Positions 5,026 through 41,663 of a stretch of DNA of 64,000 nucleotides are shown piece after piece; the first letter of the stretch is position 1, and each line of letters opens with the position of its first letter. The notes under the pieces were generated by a model that was given only the letters and a program-made list of their open reading frames with translations, ran no database searches and was not told the origin of the DNA. The position numbers and the translations under genes were made by a program. The DNA lies in contig DATIBO010000006.1 of the NCBI GenBank assembly GCA_035457485.1, positions 818,659-882,658 on the forward strand. The letters are read 5' to 3'. Origin of the DNA: Candidatus Saccharimonadales bacterium. GTDB taxonomy: Bacteria > Patescibacteriota > Saccharimonadia > Saccharimonadales > EFPC-124.

Positions 5026-5039
5026 AAAATAATTATACG

Positions 5040-6392
5040 CTAATCTATAAAATCAGCGGCAGCGTCAAATTCGGTAGGTACTAGGTGGTTTTTGCTCTTA
5101 GAAAACACATACTCCTGCTGAGACTTTGTCGGTAGAGCTGATTCCGGTATTTCGGCCAACATATTAACTACAACTGGTGTATTCTGCCAATCGGACTTTT
5201 TGGCAGCCAATAGTAACGCCGTGCGTGATTCTTCTATCTCGCCCACACACTCCAGTGGCTTATGGCCTTTTATCCCTAATAATTCCCTAAAACCATCAAG
5301 CTGAGTTTCGTCGTCAAATAAATTCTTTTTAAAAATGCTTTCTAACTGACGATCCGACATATACGGCGCCAGCATTAAAAACACGAATCGGCATTTATCG
5401 CACTCACCACACCAAGTTCGACGTCGCGCAGGATCTAGAAAAAACGCACGATTACAACTTGTAAAAACACTATGGTATTTTAAAAGTTCAGAAAACTTTC
5501 TAACCACGCGTAGTTCCGAAAACGGCCTAAGTAGCGAAAAATATTTAATATTAGGCGAAACAACCTGCCTGATAGTTTCGCTAATTAGCTTTTCGGCTGT
5601 TAAACTTTTTGACCATTGATGGTTAACGTCTATGCCTTCCCAAATAACGTTTCCGACCGACGCCGAACGCTCGTTAGAAAAAACCACACTCGCAGAACCG
5701 TTCAAAATTGCCGATATCAGCGCTGCACAAGAATTTATAGCCGTAACCGGTACGTGGCCGTTAAGACCACCGTCCCTGTTAATCTTGACTAATTCTGAGC
5801 TGATCTTGCGCGTCACAAGCACGTAAGGCAATTGAGCGGTCTCTACCGTTTTAGTTATCGGTTCAAAAGAATTTACTGAAAATAAAGTAGGCTTAAAGCC
5901 TGCCGATTTTAAAGCTTCAAGAGTGACTATAGAATCTTTGCCACCACCCACAGGCACGATTGGTCCATTTTTAAAATCGGATAGCGCTACCGAGTCAAGT
6001 TCGACAATTTTTTTGGCAACAATCTTTGGTTCTAACGAACTTAAAAGTTTATTGACATATGCAAACTCAGTCAAACCATTTTTGATAAGTTTCTTTAAAA
6101 ATATAATCTCTTGCTCGGCTACTGGTGTTAGCACGGTTAAAACTGGCGGAGCTGCTGCTTTATAGTAGCTTAGGCCGGCCGCCAAAAATAATAAACCGGC
6201 AGCTTTTTCTACTGCACGGCGCACTTTAGAGTCTTTTGCATTTTCGATATTCGGAAAGATAAATACTTCGGTAAAATCCCATTTTGCCTGATCAGCGACT
6301 AAACTGTAGTTTAAGTTTAGTTGGCCAGTAACAAAATCAAAATCGTAAGAAGAATAAACACATTCAGTTATATTTTTTGGATCAAAATTCAT
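5040..6392 (-). CDS. PP-loop-like ATP-utilising enzyme, candidate UDP-MurNAc-L-Ala-L-Glu epimerase (MurL-like)
   Basis: 450 aa. It has a PP-loop-like motif PVGGGKDS and the C-terminal motif CGECDKCRF. Its start overlaps the murD stop by 4 nt (6389-6392). The MurL assignment comes from my memory of the MurD2/MurL family and from gene context, not from a search. Confidence 0.5.
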   Translation of the reverse strand: MNFDPKNITECVYSSYDFDFVTGQLNLNYSLVADQAKWDFTEVFIFPNIENAKDSKVRRAVEKAAGLLFLAAGLSYYKAAAPPVLTVLTPVAEQEIIFLKKLIKNGLTEFAYVNKLLSSLEPKIVAKKIVELDSVALSDFKNGPIVPVGGGKDSIVTLEALKSAGFKPTLFSVNSFEPITKTVETAQLPYVLVTRKISSELVKINRDGGLNGHVPVTAINSCAALISAILNGSASVVFSNERSASVGNVIWEGIDVNHQWSKSLTAEKLISETIRQVVSPNIKYFSLLRPFSELRVVRKFSELLKYHSVFTSCNRAFFLDPARRRTWCGECDKCRFVFLMLAPYMSDRQLESIFKKNLFDDETQLDGFRELLGIKGHKPLECVGEIEESRTALLLAAKKSDWQNTPVVVNMLAEIPESALPTKSQQEYVFSKSKNHLVPTEFDAAADFID

Positions 6393-7678
6393 AACAATTC
6401 TACCTCACGCTTAAATTGTTCGCCCCTGTCTGTAAAATCTTTGAACATATCAAAACTCGGCGCGCCGGGCGACAAAATAACCACATCGCCAGGTTGAGCG
6501 CTTTCGCTACATTTTTTTACAATTTGCGCCATTGTAACTTTGTCGCCCAAAACTTCAATTTTGTTGGTCGCGCCTTGGTCGGCAAAAATTTTTTGCAATT
6601 TAGCCGAAGTATGGCCGATCAACAAAGCCTTTTTCAAACCAGATTTTAAAACTCGTTGGGCCATTCCATCTAAGCTAAGGTTTCTGTCGAAACCTCCCAA
6701 CACCATAACTTTTGGCTCGCTAAAAGCTTGAGCAGCTACAACTGCCGCGCCCGGAGCCGACGAAAAACTATCGTCGTAGTATTTAACCCCACCCACTTCG
6801 CGGACCAGCTCTATCCTATGCGGCAGCCCTGTAAAATCTTGAATCGCCTGTTTAAGCGCAGTAGCATTTTGAACAATTTGCCAACTAGCCGTCAGGGCAG
6901 CGCAAATATTTTCTATGTTGTGCTTGCCGGGAACTTTTACGTCGCCCAGCTTGCAAATAAAAGTTTGGCCAACAAAAATATCATCACCCTTCACATGCGC
7001 TGCCTGCATCGATCCGTAAGCAATCTTTTTGCCCGCCGACATATTTGCAATTCGCTCTGAAACATCGTTTTTAGGATTGTAAATAACAACATCATCAGGT
7101 TTTTGCCATTTTGCAATATTGGCTTTGGCGGTCATGTATTCTTCAAAATCTTTGTGAACATCAAGATGCTCAGGCTCTATCATCAAAACAACAGCAATGT
7201 GCGGACTAATATTTAAGTCCCAAAGTTGAAAACTGCTCAGTTCTAAAACTACAACATGATCGCTTTTTATGTCAGGCAACAAATCTAACATTGGCATACC
7301 AATATTGCCCGCCAGGTGAGTTTTTATTCCAGCCTTTTGCAGTAAATCATAAATTAAGGTAGATGTCGTGCCCTTGCCTTTAGTGCCCGTGACGCCAATT
7401 ATTGGCGCCGGGCAAACTTTAAAAAATTCACGAGTTGCCGAAGTTATTTGACCATCGGTTTTTATCTTACTGGGCCGCAAAGCTGGCACTCGCATAATAA
7501 TATCGTAGCCATGAAGTTGGCTTAGTGCACCTTTACCGGCTATCAAAGTTACTCCATCGGGCACAGAAAGCTTTGGGTTGTCGCTTTCGTCGAAAATCGT
7601 AATATCTGCGCCTTTGGCATCCCAATATTTATAAGCGCTCTCGCCTTCTACTCCGTAACCGACGATCGCTACTTTCAT
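6389..7678 (-). CDS. murD: UDP-N-acetylmuramoyl-L-alanine--glutamate ligase (MurD; possibly the L-Glu-adding MurD2 type)
   Basis: Mur-ligase P-loop GVTGTKGKGTT, an N-terminal Rossmann-like MKVAIVGYGVEG, and 429 aa length. Confidence 0.8.
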   Translation of the reverse strand: MKVAIVGYGVEGESAYKYWDAKGADITIFDESDNPKLSVPDGVTLIAGKGALSQLHGYDIIMRVPALRPSKIKTDGQITSATREFFKVCPAPIIGVTGTKGKGTTSTLIYDLLQKAGIKTHLAGNIGMPMLDLLPDIKSDHVVVLELSSFQLWDLNISPHIAVVLMIEPEHLDVHKDFEEYMTAKANIAKWQKPDDVVIYNPKNDVSERIANMSAGKKIAYGSMQAAHVKGDDIFVGQTFICKLGDVKVPGKHNIENICAALTASWQIVQNATALKQAIQDFTGLPHRIELVREVGGVKYYDDSFSSAPGAAVVAAQAFSEPKVMVLGGFDRNLSLDGMAQRVLKSGLKKALLIGHTSAKLQKIFADQGATNKIEVLGDKVTMAQIVKKCSESAQPGDVVILSPGAPSFDMFKDFTDRGEQFKREVELL

Positions 7679-8961
7679 TCAAATAACCCTCCGAGCTGGT
7701 TATGCAAATCTTTAAGTTGGCTTTCAGAAACACTTCCAAGACCGCCAAACGCCCAACGCTTACCACCAATCATATCTTCGGTAGCTTTTATAATTGTCGG
7801 CTTGTCGACTGCGGCAATCGCTTGCGGACGATTACTATAGTCATCAATATAACCATCAAAATAATAGCGACGCGCATACCAACTTGCGATCGAGCTAACT
7901 GTTTGACAACCCATCTGATGTTTGCCTAGCGCAAACTTTTTAGCGGCTTCGATATCCGCCTGAGGAAGGCTTCCGTCTAAAACTTTATTAATTTCTTCTT
8001 TTACAATGTCAAAAAGCTTGGGCGCATTTTTTATGCTGACCTGACCACCAAAGTCCCATTCGCTAGCTGAGTCGCTAACTACAAAATCTGACCACATTGA
8101 ATAAACCAAACCTTTTTCGCGTGCGCGTCCCAAGATCGCTGAGTGCAAAGTCCCAGTTTGCATATGATTTAACGCACTCATGGCATCGAGTTCGTTGTCG
8201 GGCAAGCGCCAGTTCGCCTGAATACTTAGCCCAAACATAATATTTTCTACATCTTTGCGCACAATATGAATTGGTTGCACAGCACCCACAAGCTCTTCAC
8301 GCTTTAATCCGTAACGCTCGCCACGTGGTAAATCCCATTTTTCGAGCAACTTTAAAATCTGTTGTTTGCGGTCTTCTTTTAAGTTTCCCACAATTATAAA
8401 ACGTAAGTTATCGGTTGTGTGAGTTCGTTTGTAATGCTCTTTTATGTCTTTTAATTTAACTTTGGGCATTAGTTTTACGCGTTCTTCATCAGTAAAAAAG
8501 CGTTCGCCACTTTCTTGACCAATCCGCTGCCATAGCACGCGCGAATAGTTATTCAGGTAGCCTGTTAGCTCTTCTTTAACGTTGCCGTACTCGGCGTCGA
8601 ATTCACTTGGCAAAAAAAGTGGCTTTGTAATTGCGAGACGCAGTAAGTTTAAAACGCGGTCCCATTCAAAATCGGCGCAGTCGGCATTATATCGTAGGCT
8701 GGCTGGGCTAGTACTAGCGTTACTGTAGGCGCCGTTTTTTTCGAGTTCGGCGTTAAACTGACGTGAGTTCGGAAAATCCTCGTTTGCGCCTAGAACCATG
8801 TGCTCCATAATGTGCGGAGTTTCGTAGATTTGTTCACTTGTACAATAATCGTAGCCTGCTCTAAATTCAAAATCGAAACTCATTACGGTGGCGTTAGGAA
8901 CGTGAATCAAAAGCCCACGACTACCATTGTTTAAAACTACTTCTTCGGGTGTGTGTTTCAT
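7675..8961 (-). CDS. M16-family (pitrilysin/insulinase-like) zinc peptidase
   Basis: Inverted zinc motif HxxEH (HIMEH). The stop overlaps the murD start (7675-7678). I place the start at ATG 8961 (MKHTPEEVVLNNG...). The track ORF extends to 9099, but only by reading through the GC-rich hairpin of the neighbouring foreign cassette. Confidence 0.75.
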   Translation of the reverse strand: MKHTPEEVVLNNGSRGLLIHVPNATVMSFDFEFRAGYDYCTSEQIYETPHIMEHMVLGANEDFPNSRQFNAELEKNGAYSNASTSPASLRYNADCADFEWDRVLNLLRLAITKPLFLPSEFDAEYGNVKEELTGYLNNYSRVLWQRIGQESGERFFTDEERVKLMPKVKLKDIKEHYKRTHTTDNLRFIIVGNLKEDRKQQILKLLEKWDLPRGERYGLKREELVGAVQPIHIVRKDVENIMFGLSIQANWRLPDNELDAMSALNHMQTGTLHSAILGRAREKGLVYSMWSDFVVSDSASEWDFGGQVSIKNAPKLFDIVKEEINKVLDGSLPQADIEAAKKFALGKHQMGCQTVSSIASWYARRYYFDGYIDDYSNRPQAIAAVDKPTIIKATEDMIGGKRWAFGGLGSVSESQLKDLHNQLGGLFE

Positions 8962-9075
8962 CGGGCGAGTCCAGTTAAATGCTTTTACTATCGTAACATT
9001 TTTATAGCACTTCGCCCATTGATAAGTTCTCTTACATCCATCCTGGAGCGAGATGTCGCCCGGGAACTTTGGGAT

Positions 9076-9110
9076 GCGCCCGGACAGCAAAGTGAACACT
9101 GCCCGGGCGC
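9076..9110 (-). terminator. GC-rich hairpin 28 nt downstream of the island-1 CDS
   Basis: On the minus-strand RNA, GCGCCCGGGCAG (9110..9099) pairs with CUGUCCGGGCGC (9087..9076). That gives 12 bp including one G-U, with an 11-nt loop and no U-tract. Confidence 0.55.
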
Positions 9111-9137
9111 TGTCAGTTTTGACCGACTGACGACGGT

Positions 9138-9962
9138 TTAATCATCGACGAAGGCGCCGCTTTCCTGATCGGGATAGCGAACATCCAGGCCTGAGACGCG
9201 GAAGTCAGAGAAGGCCTCGGACATCCAGACCCGATTCTTGCTCGAGGCGCCTACGACCTCCTCTTGCCAGGCGAGCTCGCCGAAGCGAGCCAGGAACGCC
9301 GTCTTGACGAACTCGTCCTCATCCAACGAACCCGTGCCGAATTCACGGCCGATCGTCCAGATTTTGAGGGCGTCCATCAGGTGTGGAATCGACAGCTGCA
9401 CGCCGAAGTCTGGATGAGCCACCAGAGCCCGAAGCGTGTCGTTGTCTGGGTTGCACGCGGCGATGATGCGGAACAGTGCTTCAGCGATGTCGCTGTGATC
9501 GGGATCGGAGTCTCCCCGGTCGCCGAAGAAAACCGCATCGCCGCGACCAGCCATGAGCACAACCGCCACATGAAGCGAGTTGTTCGTATCGAACCCATCG
9601 CCGCGCGGCACAAGGTGAATGCCGCCAGCGGTCAGGGTTGCGATCCCGAACGGATCACTCTCGTCTGGACCCTCGTACAGGTCCAGTACGACCATGCCGC
9701 GGTAGCCGAACTGAGGGCGGCCGAGCGAAACGGCCTTCCCCACCACATCAGCATAGTCCTCGGCTCTGTACTTGCCGGCGTGAATGAGATCCGCGAGGTC
9801 GCGGTCCATCACGTAAGCGTCCACGGCAGACTCGAAGTCGGTCTTCAAGTCCAATCGCGCCGCCACTGCTGGAATCTCAGGCTCCGGCAATGCCAAAGCC
9901 CCGGTTAGCCGACAAATCACCTCAAATCGGAGGAAATTGTCAGATCTTGCACCCCAGATCAT
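9138..9962 (-). CDS. Hypothetical protein, 274 aa, compositionally foreign (high-GC island 1)
   Basis: ATG 9962 is preceded by GAAGGGAGAGCA. Codons are strongly G/C-ending in this frame. A 214-aa antisense shadow ORF is typical of high-GC coding DNA. The product is acidic and cytoplasmic-looking, with no motif I recognise. Confidence 0.75.
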   Translation of the reverse strand: MIWGARSDNFLRFEVICRLTGALALPEPEIPAVAARLDLKTDFESAVDAYVMDRDLADLIHAGKYRAEDYADVVGKAVSLGRPQFGYRGMVVLDLYEGPDESDPFGIATLTAGGIHLVPRGDGFDTNNSLHVAVVLMAGRGDAVFFGDRGDSDPDHSDIAEALFRIIAACNPDNDTLRALVAHPDFGVQLSIPHLMDALKIWTIGREFGTGSLDEDEFVKTAFLARFGELAWQEEVVGASSKNRVWMSEAFSDFRVSGLDVRYPDQESGAFVDD

Positions 9963-10016
9963 TGCTCTCCCTTCGAGCCGCCGCAGAACTTCTGCAGCAA
10001 GCGGATGATCTGATGA

Positions 10017-10045
10017 ATTATAAAATAATAAGCTATGCTTTACAA
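10017..10045 (-). promoter_or_regulatory. Sigma70-like promoter candidate upstream of the island-1 CDS
   Basis: The minus strand reads TTGTAA (10045..10040), a 17-nt spacer, then TATAAT (10022..10017). It lies in the AT-rich stretch between the secA stop and island 1. Confidence 0.4.
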
Positions 10046-10083
10046 TATAAATTCGTTAGCGCCGCAATGTGCGACGCTATAAA

Positions 10084-12690
10084 CTAATGTTTTTTGTGAC
10101 GATTTTTGCGTTCTTTTTTGCGTTTTTTACGAAGGTCACTCTTTTTCTTTTTAGAATCATCAACCATCTGCTTTGACTCGCTTGCAGTTTCGAACTTAAC
10201 CTCTTTTTGTGGTTTACCAAGTTCATTTACACCCTGCTCGACCGAGTTTTCGGCCGCACGCGTAAGCTCAGTATCAAAACTGTCGTCCTGAACACTCGCG
10301 GTATCACGTTTAGTTAAATGCAGTAGCGCTCGCACCACTTCCTGGCGTTTTGTTCCTTGTAATTCCTCAAACAATCGTTGAGATTCCTGACGATATTCTA
10401 CCAACGGATCGCGCTGGCCGATTCCACGCAAGTGAATTCCTTCGCGTAAATGTTGCATGTTCTCTAGGTGACGCATCCACAAAGTATCCAAAACTTGCAG
10501 GTAAACCTCACGCTCAACTTTACGCATTAATTCTTCGCCCACTTCGGCTTCTTTGTTTTGATAAAGATTTAAGGCCTCCTCTTCGGCTACATCTGTGCGC
10601 TCTTTGTCTTTTTTGGCAGCTTCCATTTTTTTGAGAATTTCATTCGCGACCGGAATTACAGCCTCAAACTCTCCCGCAAAACTTGGGTTTTCTTTTGGTC
10701 CAAACGCCGCCAAAAAGTTAGCTTCATCCCTAACCATCTGCTTAACTTCTTCAGATATATCGCCGCCCAGCAAAATATTGCGCCTGATTGTGTAAACCGC
10801 GCGCCTATGACGATTCATAACATTGTCATATTGCACTACGTTTTTGCGAGCATCAAAGTTAAAGCCTTCAACCTTTTTTTGCGCATTCTCTAAAGTTTTG
10901 CTCACGGCTTTGTTTTGAATTGGCGTTTCCTCATCTACACCTAATCTATCCATCAGTGTGCGGATTCGCTCACCCTGGAAAATTCGCATCAAATCGTCTT
11001 CTGTCGAAACGTAGAATTGAGTCAAACCGGGGTCACCCTGACGACCACAACGTCCACGCAACTGATTGTCAATTCGGCGCGATTCGTGACGCTCTGACCC
11101 GATGACGACCAAACCACCTAGTTCTTTAACTTCCGGCGCAAGCACGATATCCGTTCCGCGGCCGGCAATGTTAGTCGCCAAAGTCACGGCACCTCTTTGA
11201 CCAGCTTTAGCAATGATCGAGGCTTCGCTCTCGTTGTTTTTGGCGTTCAATGTTTGATGTACGACCCCAGCTTTTGTGAGCGCCTTGCTAAGAGCTTCGT
11301 TCTTTTCGATCGAAACAGATCCAATTAACACCGGTCGCCCCAGTTTATTGTACTCTTTTACAGTCTCAACAATCGCCTTAAACTTACCAACTTCGGTTTT
11401 AAAAATCATGTCGGTTTTATCTTCGCGGATCACGGGTTTGTTGGCCGGAATCTGAATCACATCAAGACCATAAATCTGCTGAAATTCTTCAGCCTCGGTG
11501 TAAGCCGTTCCTGTCATTCCCGAAAGTTTGTTGTAAAGTCTAAAGTAGTTCTGGAAGCTGATCGTCGCCAAAGTCATGCTTTCCTGCAAAACTGGCACAC
11601 CTTCTTTAGCCTCGATAGCCTGGTGCAACCCTTCGTTGTACCTACGGCCATGCATTAAACGACCGGTAAATTCATCTACAATTACGACCTCTTTTTCTAC
11701 TGTTACAACGTAGTTTTTGTCGCGCTTAAATAAAGTTTGCGCTCGCAGCGCCTGGTTCATGTGATAAACCGCGCGAACGTTCTCGGGCGCGTAAAAGTTA
11801 GCTATTCCAAGCAATTTCTCTACCTTTTCTACGCCTTCGTCGGTCAGGTTTACTGCGTGGCGCTTTTCGTCCAAAACGTAGTCAGCCGGTACAAGTTTTT
11901 TCGCAATCGCCGCAAAGCTTGCGTAGTTATTGCCACTGTCGCTGGATGGCGCGCTGATAATTAGCGGCGTCCGAGCTTCATCGATTAAAATGCTGTCAAC
12001 CTCATCCACGATCGCAAAGTTTAGTTCGCGCTGACGCAGCTCATCAACTTCGTTAACCATGTTGTCGCGCAGATAATCAAAACCAAACTCGTTATTTGTG
12101 CCGTAGGTAATATCTGCGGCGTAGGCTTCTTTACGAGTGCAAGGGCGAAGTTTTTTCATCCTTGGGTCGTCGTGGGCTTCGTTTTCAAACGTAGGATCGT
12201 AAATAAATGACTGATCTGGTATAACCACCGCTACGCTCATACCCAAAAAATCGTAAACCGGACCCATCCAGCCAGCGTCACGTTGCGCCAAGTAATCGTT
12301 TACGGTTACAACGTGGACACCTTTACCGGTTAGTGCGTTTAAGTAGGTTGGCAAAGTGGCAACTAAAGTCTTACCTTCACCAGTTTTCATTTCTGCGACG
12401 TTGCCCTCGTGCAAGGCCATTCCACCTATTAATTGCACGTCAAAATGGCGCATTTTAAGCGTGCGACTAGAGGCCTCGCGCACTGTAGCGAAGGCGTCTG
12501 GCAAAATGTCTTCTAGGGTTTTATTTTTGGCAAGCTGCTCTTTTAAAACCTTAGTTTGCTTTTTAAGATCGCTGTCGTTAAGCTTTTCGTATTTACTACT
12601 TAACGAATTAATCGTCGCAACCTTCTTACGCAAACGGCGCAAAATTTTAGCTTGTGGGTCTCCAAAAATTTTTGTCAAAAACTGTCGCAT
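10084..12690 (-). CDS. secA: Preprotein translocase ATPase SecA
   Basis: Walker A MKTGEGKTLVATLP and DEAD-like DEVDSILIDEARTPLIIS. Start chosen at ATG 12690 (MRQFLTKIFGD...), which has GGAG 7 nt upstream. The basic K/R-rich C-terminal tail has no Cys zinc motif. Confidence 0.9.
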   Translation of the reverse strand: MRQFLTKIFGDPQAKILRRLRKKVATINSLSSKYEKLNDSDLKKQTKVLKEQLAKNKTLEDILPDAFATVREASSRTLKMRHFDVQLIGGMALHEGNVAEMKTGEGKTLVATLPTYLNALTGKGVHVVTVNDYLAQRDAGWMGPVYDFLGMSVAVVIPDQSFIYDPTFENEAHDDPRMKKLRPCTRKEAYAADITYGTNNEFGFDYLRDNMVNEVDELRQRELNFAIVDEVDSILIDEARTPLIISAPSSDSGNNYASFAAIAKKLVPADYVLDEKRHAVNLTDEGVEKVEKLLGIANFYAPENVRAVYHMNQALRAQTLFKRDKNYVVTVEKEVVIVDEFTGRLMHGRRYNEGLHQAIEAKEGVPVLQESMTLATISFQNYFRLYNKLSGMTGTAYTEAEEFQQIYGLDVIQIPANKPVIREDKTDMIFKTEVGKFKAIVETVKEYNKLGRPVLIGSVSIEKNEALSKALTKAGVVHQTLNAKNNESEASIIAKAGQRGAVTLATNIAGRGTDIVLAPEVKELGGLVVIGSERHESRRIDNQLRGRCGRQGDPGLTQFYVSTEDDLMRIFQGERIRTLMDRLGVDEETPIQNKAVSKTLENAQKKVEGFNFDARKNVVQYDNVMNRHRRAVYTIRRNILLGGDISEEVKQMVRDEANFLAAFGPKENPSFAGEFEAVIPVANEILKKMEAAKKDKERTDVAEEEALNLYQNKEAEVGEELMRKVEREVYLQVLDTLWMRHLENMQHLREGIHLRGIGQRDPLVEYRQESQRLFEELQGTKRQEVVRALLHLTKRDTASVQDDSFDTELTRAAENSVEQGVNELGKPQKEVKFETASESKQMVDDSKKKKSDLRKKRKKERKNRHKKH

Positions 12691-12816
12691 ATTTGTCTCC
12701 AAGTTAAAGGGAAGAATCCTTAATAGTATACCCACATTTAGCACTGAATGGAATGGTCTGCCAACAATAGCCGCCTAATAGATTACGGGGCATAATTGAG
12801 CATTTCTACGCCACAG

Positions 12817-14492: not shown

Positions 14493-14532
14493 GGGGTTAA
14501 TTATACTATGATTTAAGGAGTTTAGGAATCAT

Positions 14533-15732: not shown

Positions 15733-16116
15733 ATGACCGAAAAGGCCGAGGGCATCGAGGAGAACGTGAACGTCTTCCGCAAGTTCGTGGGAGATTCGTT
15801 CATGAACTACGTCGAGCTCCACTTTAACCGCGGAGGACTCGATGGACTGCAGCGTGCGCTTGAACCTCAGTCGCGCGAGAAGCTGGCAGCCTACCTGAGC
15901 GCCAACTACAACGCAGTTCGACAGCAAGGCTGGCCGCGGTTCGGCGAGGTCGTACACACGACCATCAACAACCTGACAGTCCACCTGCTGGAGCTGTTGG
16001 ACGACCCATCCAGTAATGCCTACCCCCTGTCCCTCAAAGAACTCGGAGTATCTCCGCTCGCGATCGTCACACACATCATGACGGCGATCCGAAACCCATT
16101 CCCCTTCTACCCGTAA
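15733..16116 (+). CDS. Hypothetical protein, 127 aa, compositionally foreign (high-GC island 2)
   Basis: GGGAGG (15723-15728) lies 4 nt before ATG 15733. Codons mostly end in G/C. A hairpin follows the stop. The overlapping 152-aa minus-strand ORF looks like a shadow ORF. No motif recognised. Confidence 0.7.
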   Translation: MTEKAEGIEENVNVFRKFVGDSFMNYVELHFNRGGLDGLQRALEPQSREKLAAYLSANYNAVRQQGWPRFGEVVHTTINNLTVHLLELLDDPSSNAYPLSLKELGVSPLAIVTHIMTAIRNPFPFYP

Positions 16117-26973: not shown

Positions 26974-27357
26974 TCAGATCTTCTTCGGGTTGGCGGTTGC
27001 GACCCAGGCGATCATCGCCAGCAGGCTGTGCACGATGGCGTAGCCGGTGGTGATGCTCACGACCTGCGCCACGTTGAGGTAGCCGTCGATCGTGAACGCG
27101 AAGGCCAGGATGTTGATACCGACCGTTGCGAAGAAAAGGTTGATCACGTTGATCAGGAAGTCGTCTCGGGTGAAGACCCGCTTGGACGTGCTTCCGATGA
27201 GCTCCTGGGGCAGAGCGCGCATAGTAGCGCGGTACGCAAAGAAGCCGGCGCTGAGAATCCCGAAGACGGCCAGCAGGAACGCCATGCCACTCATCTGAGG
27301 AGCATCGACGCCGAATGCCGGGTCGTTACCGAAGGGGTTCGTCGCGAGAACGTTCAT
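26974..27357 (-). CDS. Hypothetical 3-TM membrane protein, ~127 aa, compositionally foreign (high-GC island 3)
   Basis: GGAG (27366..27363) lies 5 nt before ATG 27357; the track start at 27363 is a GTG. Three hydrophobic helices: GMAFLLAVFGILSAGFFAY, FLINVINLFFATVGINILAFAFTI and VVSITTGYAIVHSLLAMIAWVA. A 165-aa antisense shadow ORF is present. Confidence 0.7.
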   Translation of the reverse strand: MNVLATNPFGNDPAFGVDAPQMSGMAFLLAVFGILSAGFFAYRATMRALPQELIGSTSKRVFTRDDFLINVINLFFATVGINILAFAFTIDGYLNVAQVVSITTGYAIVHSLLAMIAWVATANPKKI

Positions 27358-27417
27358 GATCACTCCAAAGTACGTGGTTCTGCCGATTGGCAGGCCGTCT
27401 TTTTGGACGGTAATGTA

Positions 27418-29020: not shown

Positions 29021-29551
29021 GTGACTGAGACCGACCCACAGTCCGACTCGGCGATCTACCGAAGGCAAGGAAGCCTCGTCGCCGGTCTGCTGATGGACAC
29101 CCTGAGGCGAGAACTCAGTGGACTGTCCAGAAGGAACGGCACTCACGAACTTCTGAGCTCAGTACTGGACCATCGTCGAATCGGCGACATGGTTCGCGAA
29201 CTGTCTCAGACCATCCCCCCGGATCTCGGTGCAATCGTTCGCGAAACCTCGCTGGGGCTCGACGAAGAGTCCCCGATTCCGAGGATCGTGGACGCCGATC
29301 AGGCACTCTCCAACATCAGCACCAAGCTCGAAGTCACGCAGCAACTCGTTCGGATCTTCCGAATCCTTCGGACGATCTACGCGGCAACACTCGTGCAGGA
29401 TCACTCGGTCGAGGGCTGTGCTGCTCTCGCCTGCGTGACCTATGGTCGCATCCTGGAGGTCGTCGACCTGAGGGAGGCAACCTTCGAGAGCGCACTCACG
29501 CTGCGCAAGGACGTGATCCGAGCACTTCAGGTCACAACGCTTGAGAGCTGA
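29021..29551 (+). CDS. Hypothetical protein, 176 aa, compositionally foreign (high-GC island 4)
   Basis: GTG start at 29021 with GGAAGGAG (29007-29014) 6 nt upstream. Composition looks helical with R/L/E/D-rich content. A strong terminator follows. No motif recognised. Confidence 0.7.
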   Translation: MTETDPQSDSAIYRRQGSLVAGLLMDTLRRELSGLSRRNGTHELLSSVLDHRRIGDMVRELSQTIPPDLGAIVRETSLGLDEESPIPRIVDADQALSNISTKLEVTQQLVRIFRILRTIYAATLVQDHSVEGCAALACVTYGRILEVVDLREATFESALTLRKDVIRALQVTTLES

Positions 29552-41633: not shown

Positions 41634-41663
41634 AAAAGCGCGCCTGTATAAGGCGCGCTTTTT
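41634..41663. terminator. Bidirectional intrinsic terminator between convergent genes
   Basis: GCGCGCC (41638-41644) pairs with GGCGCGC (41652-41658), with an A4 run upstream and a T5 run downstream. Confidence 0.8.

Follow-up and report, generated by a model that had tools for sequence, protein, structure and literature searches.

We consider the 274-aa orphan protein encoded between secA and the M16-murD-murL operon to be, with fair probability, the product of a lineage-restricted accessory gene that was probably acquired horizontally and that lies in a permissive, high-turnover hotspot, the secA-M16 gap. Throughout, the window denotes the whole 64-kb stretch of DNA that was analyzed, WIN denotes the window's own secA-M16 locus, and L-numbers denote related secA-M16 loci.

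The secA-M16 gap and its edges

The neighboring genes are secA, hpf, and serS upstream, and M16, murD, murL, and prfB downstream. The following features delimit the gap.

10084-12744, minus strand: secA, the upstream flanking core gene, from the ORF list; its true start may be internal
10057-10079, minus strand: 10-bp hairpin (TAGCGTCGCA-cat-TGCGGCGCTA) from the hairpin scan, 5 nt past the secA stop
8990-8998, minus strand: conserved extended -10 box of the M16 operon, TGTTACGAT, from the alignment of upstream regions; downstream edge of the hotspot
7675-8961, minus strand: M16-family peptidase gene, start ATG 8961, the downstream core gene
6389-7678, minus strand: murD, following M16
5040-6392, minus strand: murL, following murD

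In a tblastn search, 78 of 80 related loci had SecA as the immediate upstream neighbor of M16, and in relatives the syntenic genes are annotated with the Pfam domains of SecA as well as with Peptidase_M16, Mur_ligase, and MurL. The hairpin at 10057-10079 likely terminates secA and bounds the hotspot on its upstream side; L009, L011, L012, and L018 have a hairpin at the equivalent place after secA. At the opposite edge, WIN and 15 clade relatives have in common AAAATGGTAYGAT, about 40-50 nt before the M16 ATG, plus a AACCTGGA-like leader element. The box, which reads TGGTAYGAT in the relatives, is the only DNA common to the regions of the inserts. The listed M16 ORF begins at GTG 9099, a 46-codon extension that the preliminary description had called artificial. 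It is spurious, because the conserved promoter box falls inside it, and the true start is ATG 8961, given that the alignments of all 80 relatives with the 428-aa form start at its first residue.

Variability of the gap across Saccharimonadales

In 62 more distant Saccharibacteria loci, secA and M16 mostly abut (spacing of 0) and the gap is at most 101 bp. Within the window's clade, five loci have an empty gap (-4 to 141 bp), whereas in eleven it spans 360-2738 bp, and its occupancy differs between sister genomes. The clade inserts have a GC content of 0.43-0.59, mostly on the GC-rich side, and carry different orphan ORFs on either strand; with the exception of the L011/L012/L018 group, they are unrelated in both DNA and protein. 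They always sit upstream of the conserved M16 promoter box. None of the 8 insert ORFs that were scanned contains a Pfam family above cutoff, the cargo of L006 is a singleton too, and L004 also carries GC-rich orphan ORFs upstream of M16. These comparisons show that the 274-aa gene is an insertion relative to an ancestral adjacency of secA and M16-murD-murL, as had been proposed, and that the gap is a variable, high-turnover accessory-gene hotspot common to the whole clade.

One cargo, a 103-aa protein family, provides a measure of how these genes evolve. It always lies within the secA-M16 gap, and its relatives occur only on contigs with Saccharimonadales-type synteny. Its members are 50-86% identical where M16 is 94-97% identical, i.e. 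they diverge about ten times faster than M16, with dN/dS values of 0.27-0.48; the family is inherited in place, and purifying selection maintains it in at least 8 genomes. The singleton status of the 274-aa gene is expected, since cargo evolves at this rate and even the nearest sampled relatives share only 73-80% M16 identity with WIN. The GC3 of the family cargo remains high despite saturated divergence, which means that GC-richness might belong to the locus itself and need not indicate that the DNA arrived recently.

These rates also bear on the idea that no recent insertion took place, and that the cargos WIN-274, L010-259, and L006-260 are orthologues of one ancient resident gene diverged beyond recognition. 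The three genes have the same site and orientation, similar lengths (259-274 aa), and a 3' hairpin each; at about ten times the M16 rate, orthologues at 73-80% M16 identity would be undetectable, and the persistently high GC3 of the 103-aa family would fit a long residence. Nevertheless, we found no local, global, or hydropathy similarity among them (z <= 2.8; r <= 0.26), and their pI values differ widely (4.5, 8.6, and 7.0, respectively). Other clade members have opposite-strand cargo, two-gene cargo, or empty sites, making turnover certain, and the GC contrast in WIN is too large for long residence unless a locus-specific GC-biased process operates. We therefore judge a single ancient gene to be decidedly improbable.

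The 274-aa ORF and its signals

The gene and the elements around it are listed below.

~9037-10010, no strand: GC-rich island from composition profiles, with sharp edges inside the intergenic gap
9138-9962, minus strand: CDS of the 274-aa acidic orphan protein, from the ORF list; NCBI locus tag VLA77_04745, hypothetical protein
9967-9973, minus strand: Shine-Dalgarno sequence AAGGGAG, read from the sequence, 4 nt ahead of the ATG
10017-10045, minus strand: candidate sigma-70-like promoter TTGTAA-17-TATAAT from the promoter scan, located 55 nt before the ATG within an AT-rich stretch that is unique
9076-9110, minus strand: GC-rich 14-bp hairpin found by folding, 27 nt past the stop codon and without a U-tract
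9056-9063, minus strand: third CGCCCGGG copy, from motif positions, downstream of the hairpin

The coding sequence and its Shine-Dalgarno-ATG context are present as first described. The ATG, preceded by GAAGGGAGAGCA, is the earliest possible start past an in-frame stop, and the AAGGGAG resembles the Shine-Dalgarno sequences of the native gdh (AAAGGAGAG) and murD (GGAGGG) genes. The ORF is probably a genuine protein-coding gene: its position-specific composition (GC1/2/3 of 0.67/0.42/0.72, G1 of 0.46, C2 exceeding G2, A3 of 0.09) and its codon periodicity are gene-like, a 274-codon open frame would arise by chance at 60% GC with a frequency of about 1e-4 per start (calculated from base composition), and the NCBI pipeline annotates the same minus-strand ORF. 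The gene is presumably expressed. A reading of the region as a structured RNA was rejected, as strong 3-base periodicity argues for coding and no Rfam covariance model matched at E <= 1 in 8700-10400 or at the gathering score in the whole window.

The preliminary description had allowed that a plus-strand ORF of 214 aa (9264-9908) might be the real gene instead. This ORF is long, and it shares the low GC2 of the 274-aa ORF because it is its exact antisense frame. Its position-specific pattern is, however, inverted relative to the minus-strand ORF (G2 of 0.25 above C2 of 0.18, T1 of 0.08, GC1 above GC3), and its product is rich in Arg, His, and Val. It has neither Shine-Dalgarno nor terminator context, matches nothing in Pfam or PHROGs, and lies wholly inside the longer minus-strand ORF annotated by NCBI; we find it scarcely credible as a gene, and the minus-strand frame is the coding one.

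The promoter-like element had been reported correctly. It matches the consensus at 10 of 12 positions and is well placed, yet it lacks statistical significance because the count equals chance expectation: shuffles of the region also yield one such site (1.0 ± 1.0). No copy of the AT-rich segment that bears it was found elsewhere in the window or in related loci.

The 3' hairpin is better supported. It folds as 14 bp with a 7-nt loop at -28.4 kcal/mol (z = -5.1), a stability reached by 0 of 200 shuffles. Twelve of its pairs, one of them G.U, are those originally given, and two further G.U pairs lengthen the stem. The G.U pair inside the 12 bp forms only in minus-strand RNA, since the plus strand has an A/C mismatch there (92% complementarity), and we count it as support for the minus-strand gene. 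Regarding canonical intrinsic terminators, the stem is present and the U-tract is absent, the tail being AUCCCAAAGUUC, which is why the terminator scan does not call the element. Native terminators in the window and in relatives have U-tracts, unlike this hairpin, and other hotspot cargos carry their own 3' hairpins without a U-tract. Terminator hairpins lacking a U-tract ("I-shaped") have been described in high-GC Actinobacteria, and the present element resembles them as a long GC-rich stem right after the stop; the resemblance identifies no donor. We predict that the hairpin is a terminator-like or RNA-stabilizing 3' element belonging to the cargo gene.

GCCCGG occurs, as noted earlier, three times in the 3' UTR (at 9058, 9078, and 9101), compared with 8 copies on the plus strand of all 64 kb. 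Since the hairpin arms account for two of these three, the third alone adds to what the hairpin already shows. This third CGCCCGGG copy could pair with the 5' arm of the hairpin in a weaker, 8-bp alternative, and it falls within a smaller stem of the 146-nt fold. We also considered whether shared GCCCGGGC hairpins might mark a common recombination site, and rejected this because the hairpin sequences differ between inserts. The GCGCCCGGGC arm is common to WIN and L010 only, and CCCGGG is expected about once per kb at 60% GC (calculated).

Properties and relatives of the 274-aa protein

The protein contains 47 D+E and 24 K+R residues, with a net charge of -23 and a pI of 4.46; at 17% D+E, its acidity is moderate. 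Its maximal 19-residue Kyte-Doolittle hydropathy is only 1.27, excluding a transmembrane segment, and we saw no signal-like N-terminus. The predicted properties thus agree with the D/E-rich protein lacking transmembrane segment and signal peptide that had been described, and support an acidic, cytoplasmic protein.

Searches for relatives returned almost nothing. Profile searches of Pfam, NCBIfam, and PADLOC gave 0 families at E <= 1, Pfam gave 0 families even at E <= 10 for the whole protein and its two halves, PHROGs gave no match, and PDB sequences gave 0 matches at E <= 10. In a word-indexed search of about 15 billion proteins, the sole match was the protein itself (P0001, identical), annotated as "hypothetical protein" in a MAG of Candidatus Saccharimonadales; a look-up of contigs by the exact sequence of this entry returned no record. 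An exhaustive phmmer search added one match, P0002 (E = 2.4e-5), which we rejected as a homologue: a 52-residue, ~30%-identical match is repeated over six tandem repeats of a BACON-domain protein, and this repetition inflates the summed score. Six-frame searches of viral contigs, JGI metagenome contigs, phage genomes, and plasmids found no match, a scan of the JGI metagenomes with the M16 N-terminus pattern found no closer relative, and the 64-kb window holds no paralogue. The search for clear homologues that had been suggested as a check therefore came back empty, in proteins and in six-frame DNA alike, and the protein is supported as an orphan by all these databases. AlphaFold2 run on the single sequence, without an alignment, gave an unusable model (pLDDT 34, pTM 0.21), and Foldseek against PDB with this model was, as expected, meaningless (best E = 0.67, probability 0.06, TM ~0.1). 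Neither Pfam nor PHROGs matched ArdA/Ocr-type anti-restriction families, and the protein is only moderately acidic.

The preliminary description had likened the protein to immunity-type proteins common in Actinobacteria. We considered this idea in the form of an orphan immunity protein or antitoxin against a polymorphic toxin, received from an actinobacterial host. Cultivated Saccharibacteria do live on Actinobacteria (PMC10633639). Like SUKH/SMI1-KNR4 and Imm immunity proteins, the protein is small, acidic (pI 4.46), cytoplasmic, and without a transmembrane segment, although this trait is not specific, and it is encoded at a fast-evolving, variable single-gene locus typical of conflict genes. 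Unlike them, the 274-aa protein lacks a toxin partner and a paralogue array, and Pfam, NCBIfam, and PADLOC return neither an Imm or SUKH family nor any other for it, even at E <= 10. Its neighbors within 5 kb are housekeeping genes, and neither a toxin gene nor an immunity array was found among them. The ~15 billion proteins contained no homologue from Actinobacteria or elsewhere, the remaining hotspot cargos, at pI 5.3-8.8, are not acidic, and the GC3 of 0.72 is below that typical of high-GC Actinobacteria. An immunity function of actinobacterial origin is consequently improbable. Of the earlier interpretation as a whole, the orphan status, the insertion, the acidic cytoplasmic nature, and the strand were retained, whereas the immunity and Actinobacteria ideas were not. 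Our own best guess is a dispensable soluble acidic cytoplasmic protein engaged in a fast-evolving interaction, e.g. binding a basic partner such as a toxin or a nucleic-acid-binding protein.

Composition and origin of the island

No other segment of the window equals the ~1-kb island in length or GC-richness: its GC content is 0.59-0.60 vs. a window mean of 0.445, and its edges are sharp to within ~60 nt. The GC3 of the 274-aa ORF is 0.72 vs. ~0.41-0.46 for native genes, and its RSCU values do not correlate with theirs (r = -0.05); the composition of the island is foreign. Its codon usage correlates with that of high-GC sister lineages (r up to 0.72), but codon usage fails to discriminate donors because GC3 drives the correlation. 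By composition, high-GC sister lineages of the clade would be as plausible a source as Actinobacteria. No related locus showed DNA similarity to the island. A homologous-replacement tract was rejected, since the flanking gene ends have no donor-like tract: the adjacent ends of secA and M16 have native GC3 (0.33-0.35). As to marks of mobility, we found no tRNA in the window, no target-site duplication, no flanking direct or inverted repeats beyond chance size, and no integrase or transposase among neighboring ORFs. At least three more islets of the same character lie in the window; the preliminary description had overlooked both these and the clade-wide variable hotspot.

An abrupt GC jump in a short-read MAG assembly could also betray a chimeric join or a contaminant fragment, and the JGI metagenome contigs contained neither the 274-aa protein in six frames nor a close relative bearing this M16 N-terminus. 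Against such an artefact, both flanks are colinear with conserved synteny, and the insert is bounded precisely by the secA hairpin on one side and the M16 promoter box on the other. At least 11 related genomes, assembled independently, also contain inserts at this site, and three more islets of identical character are present in the window. We regard it as very improbable.

The island might instead be passenger DNA without function, a foreign, GC-rich piece the size of a complete gene that a competent cell took up recently at a neutral site, in which case the ORF would owe its intactness only to its youth and to the scarcity of stop codons in GC-rich DNA. The lack of any homologue, the entirely unameliorated composition, the chance-level promoter match, the neutral location with a terminator on one side and a promoter on the other, and the loss or lack of inserts in sister genomes are all in line with this. 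On the other hand, the unit is neatly complete (Shine-Dalgarno, first ATG, stop, own hairpin), it follows the operon orientation and brings no truncated fragments of neighboring genes, another cargo at the same site is under purifying selection in at least 8 genomes, and reduced genomes of ~0.9 Mb are under strong deletion pressure. We consider functionless DNA unlikely, though worth keeping in mind.

An accessory gene acquired by transfer would fit these data as follows. The gap between the secA terminator and the promoter of M16-murD-murL would be a permissive site: an insertion disturbs neither neighbor because the downstream operon keeps its own conserved promoter, and DNA probably accumulates there for this reason. 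The unit looks self-contained, with a candidate sigma-70-type promoter, Shine-Dalgarno sequence and ATG, CDS, and its own strong 3' hairpin. The entry of ~60% GC DNA into a 44.5% GC genome would most likely be due to horizontal transfer, and the donor, at ~60% GC, could be a higher-GC Saccharimonadales or an unrelated bacterium. As background to a presumed transfer route, Saccharibacteria are naturally competent and integrate cassettes at intergenic neutral sites (PMC10633639), and islands acquired by horizontal transfer are abundant in Patescibacteria, mostly from within the phylum (PMC12455944).

A variant of the hotspot, which we regard as doubtful, is that the gap is one of many terminator-promoter "cradles" with clade-restricted, ultra-fast-evolving, GC3-rich single genes, whose GC-richness is kept locally and not inherited from a donor. 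Local maintenance could proceed e.g. via recombination-associated GC-biased gene conversion or selection. With at least four such genes in the 64-kb window, equal density would imply dozens per genome and, if true, GC-richness would mark a distinct gene compartment for host or competitor interaction.

Comparison with known systems

Chromosomal hotspots of horizontal transfer between conserved core genes are a general concept in bacterial pangenomes. The secA-M16 gap resembles them in that one core-gene pair encloses variable, unrelated content of deviant composition and sister genomes differ, but its inserts are tiny, mostly single genes of 0.4-1.3 kb, the site is without mobility genes, tRNA, or repeats, the cargo is almost all orphan, and the host is an epibiont with a 0.9-Mb genome.

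Integron cassettes likewise consist of a single, mostly orphan ORF with an imperfect inverted repeat behind it, and one site receives cargos that are unrelated to each other. However, attC sites are longer than 35 nt, namely bulged palindromes of 55-140 nt, whereas the hairpin at 9076-9110 is a near-perfect 35-nt stem-loop. The attC cores R'' (RYYYAAC) and R' (GTTRRRY) had no match on either strand of the 3' region, no intI or attI was found nearby, where the ORFs within ~5 kb are all housekeeping, and the secA-M16 cargo lies on both strands with hairpin sequences unrelated between inserts.

The genomic islands and singly transferred genes of Patescibacteria (Gios et al. 2025, PMC12455944) are similar as acquired regions in streamlined CPR genomes, exchanged mostly within the phylum, much as the 103-aa cargo family is confined to contigs with Saccharimonadales-type synteny, but the islands are larger and have annotated metabolic or informational functions, whereas the secA-M16 cargo has no recognizable function and recurs at one intergenic site. 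Engineered insertion at a neutral site (Wang et al. 2023, PMC10633639), where a promoter-gene-terminator cassette is tolerated in an intergenic site, is a further parallel, and demonstrates competence plus recombination as a DNA entry route in Saccharibacteria. In that work ~1-kb homology arms and convergent genes were used, in contrast to the co-oriented genes and missing donor tract at secA-M16.

Significance

Taken alone, the 274-aa gene is one more hypothetical MAG protein, to which the context adds modest value. The analysis also corrected the start of the M16 peptidase, located the conserved promoter of its operon, and provided a calibration: hotspot cargo diverges at about ten times the rate of a core gene, which explains the singleton appearance of such genes. 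The secA-M16 gap would be a natural neutral site and could serve the engineering of soil Saccharimonadales. More generally, the locus shows that an epibiont genome of 0.9 Mb maintains particular intergenic sites at which single genes, foreign or fast-evolving, are gained and lost.

A GC-rich island and its gene

Composition profiles place the window's longest and most GC-rich segment (GC 0.59-0.60 vs a window mean of 0.445), with edges sharp to ~60 nt, between secA (10084-12744) and the M16-family peptidase gene (7675-8961) that heads the minus-strand M16-murD-murL operon.

Features of the island and its edges
10057-10079, hairpin 3' of the secA stop, also found in several relatives
10045-10017, promoter-like TTGTAA-17-TATAAT, 10/12 positions matched
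~9037-10010, GC-rich island
9138-9962, minus strand, 274-codon ORF; its ATG, with GAAGGGAGAGCA upstream, is the first start codon past an in-frame stop
plus strand, 214-aa ORF, exact antisense frame of the 274-aa ORF
9076-9110, hairpin of the minus-strand RNA, 14 bp with a 7-nt loop
8990-8998, M16 promoter box AAAATGGTAYGAT, an extended -10 motif 40-50 nt 5' of the M16 ATG

The ORF, its upstream element and its ATG are present as set out in the preliminary description. The minus-strand frame (GC1/2/3 = 0.67/0.42/0.72; G1 = 0.46; C2 > G2; A3 = 0.09) has the composition of real genes, native genes here included. The plus-strand ORF, last-ranked of the alternatives as the true gene, shows the mirror pattern (G2 > C2, T1 = 0.08); its product is Arg-, His- and Val-rich and has no match in Pfam or PHROGs. 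By our calculation, the chance of a 274-codon open frame at 60% GC is ~1e-4 per start. In the NCBI annotation the 274-aa ORF is a hypothetical protein encoded on an 889-kb contig of a Candidatus Saccharimonadales MAG.

The 3' hairpin, first described with 12 bp, folds even as 14 bp (-28.4 kcal/mol, z = -5.1 vs dinucleotide shuffles). Those 12 bp include a G.U pair formed in the minus-strand RNA only, the other strand having an A/C mismatch. No U-tract lies downstream, whereas native terminators have one (e.g. 41634-41662), and the hairpin may attenuate read-through. The terminator at 41634-41662, AAAAGCGCGCC-tgtataa-GGCGCGCTTTT, is canonical and bidirectional, and is the window's only other long GC-rich perfect hairpin. 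GCCCGG does recur three times (9058, 9078 and 9101; 8 copies in the whole 64-kb plus strand), but two of these copies are simply the hairpin's arms. The promoter-like site is likewise present and well placed, but not significant, as shuffles also yield one such site.

The 274-aa protein is an orphan

The protein is acidic (D+E 47, K+R 24, pI 4.46), with neither a TM segment nor a signal-like N-terminus in sequence analysis. Searches against Pfam, NCBIfam, PADLOC, PHROGs and PDB sequences returned nothing, also at a cut-off relaxed to E <= 10 and with half-length fragments as queries, and among 5.8 billion protein clusters a word-indexed search found only the protein itself. Viral contigs, JGI metagenome contigs, phage genomes and plasmids likewise gave nothing when searched in six frames. 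Exhaustive phmmer against 1.84 billion representatives added one match, the database protein P0002 (E = 2.4e-5), which we discounted as a homologue: it consists of a single 52-residue, ~30%-identical stretch that aligns six times, to the tandem repeats in a BACON-domain protein. AlphaFold2 without an alignment gave a pLDDT of 34, and Foldseek on this model returned noise only. The orphan claim thus holds, but the proposed immunity-type function, drawn from acidity and size, lacks both of its checkable hallmarks, as neither a matching family nor a partner toxin was found.

The secA-M16 gap is an integration hotspot

We fetched 80 loci encoding M16 relatives and measured how far the M16 start lies from the secA stop.

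Occupancy of the secA-M16 gap
More distant loci (L019-L080; 62; M16 <= 51% identical): gap -4 to 101 bp, mostly 0
Clade, empty (L001, L007, L013, L014, L016; M16 66-80% identical): gap -4 to 141 bp
Clade, occupied (L002, L003, L006, L008-L012, L015, L017, L018; M16 66-80% identical): gap 360-2738 bp, GC 0.43-0.59

This comparison supports the insertion between secA and the operon; an assembly chimera, which would make the junction artefactual, ranks third among the alternatives. GC-rich orphan ORFs lie upstream of M16 in L004 as well. In the M16 tree occupancy differs between sisters (L001 empty vs 1.3 kb in L002; L007 empty vs >1.6 kb in L004), indicating that the site turns over. The inserts have no DNA in common with each other or the window, except those of L011, L012 and L018; the sole common element is the 3'-edge box AAAATGGTAYGAT. 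With the secA hairpin at one edge and this box at the other, the hotspot is therefore the space from the secA terminator to the M16 promoter. Three contigs titled Magnetospirillaceae, Woesebacteria and Acidoferrum (L008, L014, L015) have the Saccharimonadales secA-M16 arrangement, with M16 69-74% identical to that of the window; their MAG bin or label is probably wrong.

As listed, the M16 ORF begins at GTG 9099 and is 46 codons too long, an artificial extension already recognised in the preliminary description: the alignments of all 80 relatives begin at the first residue of a 428-aa protein whose start is ATG 8961, and the conserved promoter box falls inside the supposed extension. The box and a AACCTGGA-like leader element are kept across the clade, window included. 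This element lies ~10-15 nt before the ATG in the clade M16 leader (window 8962-9005; 75 nt upstream of M16 in L001-L018), which more distant Saccharibacteria lack because secA and M16 abut or overlap there. Elsewhere in the window, TATAAT boxes within 5026-5050 (prfB ATG 5025) and 14493-14517 (serS ATG 14492) stand only 7-9 nt before the ATG with no SD, which suggests leaderless transcripts of these two native genes.

Cargo genes

Coding periodicity marks one frame in each insert.

Cargo of the inserts
Operon orientation: 274 aa (window), 260 aa (L006), 259 aa (L010)
Opposite strand: 240 aa (L003), 164 aa (L009), 103-aa family (101-125 aa, MEITNRFPTD...WTKPQFSN...; L011 2847-3158, L012 5582-5893, L018 5519-5890, and L081-L086)
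L002: two membrane proteins
L017, 3515-5965: 816-aa protein of native GC

The L017 protein, with Gly, Ser, Thr and Asn repeats and an N-terminal TM segment, is surface-protein-like rather than a GC-rich orphan. Pairwise Smith-Waterman, semi-global and hydropathy comparisons revealed no relationship between cargos, whose pI ranges from 4.5 to 8.8, and the L006 cargo, too, matches only itself among the 5.8 billion clusters. A GC-rich hairpin lacking a U-tract accompanies most cargos, generally on the 3' side of the ORF, and its sequence differs from insert to insert. None of the eight insert ORFs scanned exceeded a Pfam family cutoff. For the 274-aa ORF, passenger DNA of no function is the first-ranked alternative. 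In the 103-aa family dN/dS is 0.27-0.48.

That family comprises 11 database clusters, and every member with an examined contig sits in the secA-M16 gap with Saccharimonadales-type synteny. Its proteins are 50-86% identical where M16 is 94-97% identical, a divergence ~10x faster. Since the nearest sampled relatives of the window have M16 73-80% identical, any orthologue of the 274-aa protein would lie beyond sequence detection. Hidden orthology ranks second among the alternatives; singleton status would be expected at this rate and is no proof of unique acquisition.

Origin of the island DNA

Codon usage of the 274-aa ORF is uncorrelated with native genes (r = -0.05) and correlates with higher-GC sister lineages at r up to 0.72, a value driven by GC3. 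Codon-position GC contents vary with genomic GC, and the values of this frame suggest a donor of ~60% GC. Clade background GC spans 0.425-0.58 (locus medians) with the window at the low end, so a high-GC member of Saccharimonadales is as plausible a donor as Actinobacteria, and we found no evidence for the actinobacterial origin first proposed. The compositional spread is very large also in clade M16 genes, from GC3 0.41 (window) to 0.71 (L012) at 73-80% aa identity. In the 103-aa family divergence is saturated, yet cargo GC3 (0.75-0.89) remains higher than that of core genes (0.63-0.71); high GC may belong in part to the locus itself.

Neither a tRNA gene nor flanking repeats nor neighbouring mobility genes point to how the DNA entered. 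The secA and M16 ends adjoining the island have native GC3 (0.33-0.35), and hence show no tract of homologous replacement. Saccharibacteria show natural competence, with cassettes integrating at neutral sites between genes (PMC10633639), and HGT islands are common in Patescibacteria, their source being mostly within the phylum (PMC12455944).

Three further islets lie between or beside housekeeping genes.

GC-rich islets
15733-16116, plus strand, 127-aa ORF, upstream of gdh
26974-27363, minus strand, 129-aa ORF, frr/tsf
29021-29551, plus strand, 176-aa ORF, rpsB/membrane protein gene

Each holds one ORF with coding periodicity, GC3 0.71-0.85 and no Pfam family; we class these islets with the 274-aa island. 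Another GC-rich patch occupies 61-492.

Interpretation

The 274-aa ORF is best read as a genuine accessory gene confined to this lineage, in an intergenic site that tolerates insertions and turns over rapidly. A candidate promoter, an SD and a 3' hairpin come with it, and the separate promoter of the M16-murD-murL operon remains directly downstream of the insert. The preliminary description was right in its sequence observations, the orphan and the insertion; the protein's proposed role and source find no support. As an orphan carried by an integration hotspot, the protein is of a known kind. Most noteworthy are the secA-M16 hotspot with its fast clock and the other GC3-rich orphan islets, at least three, in the window.
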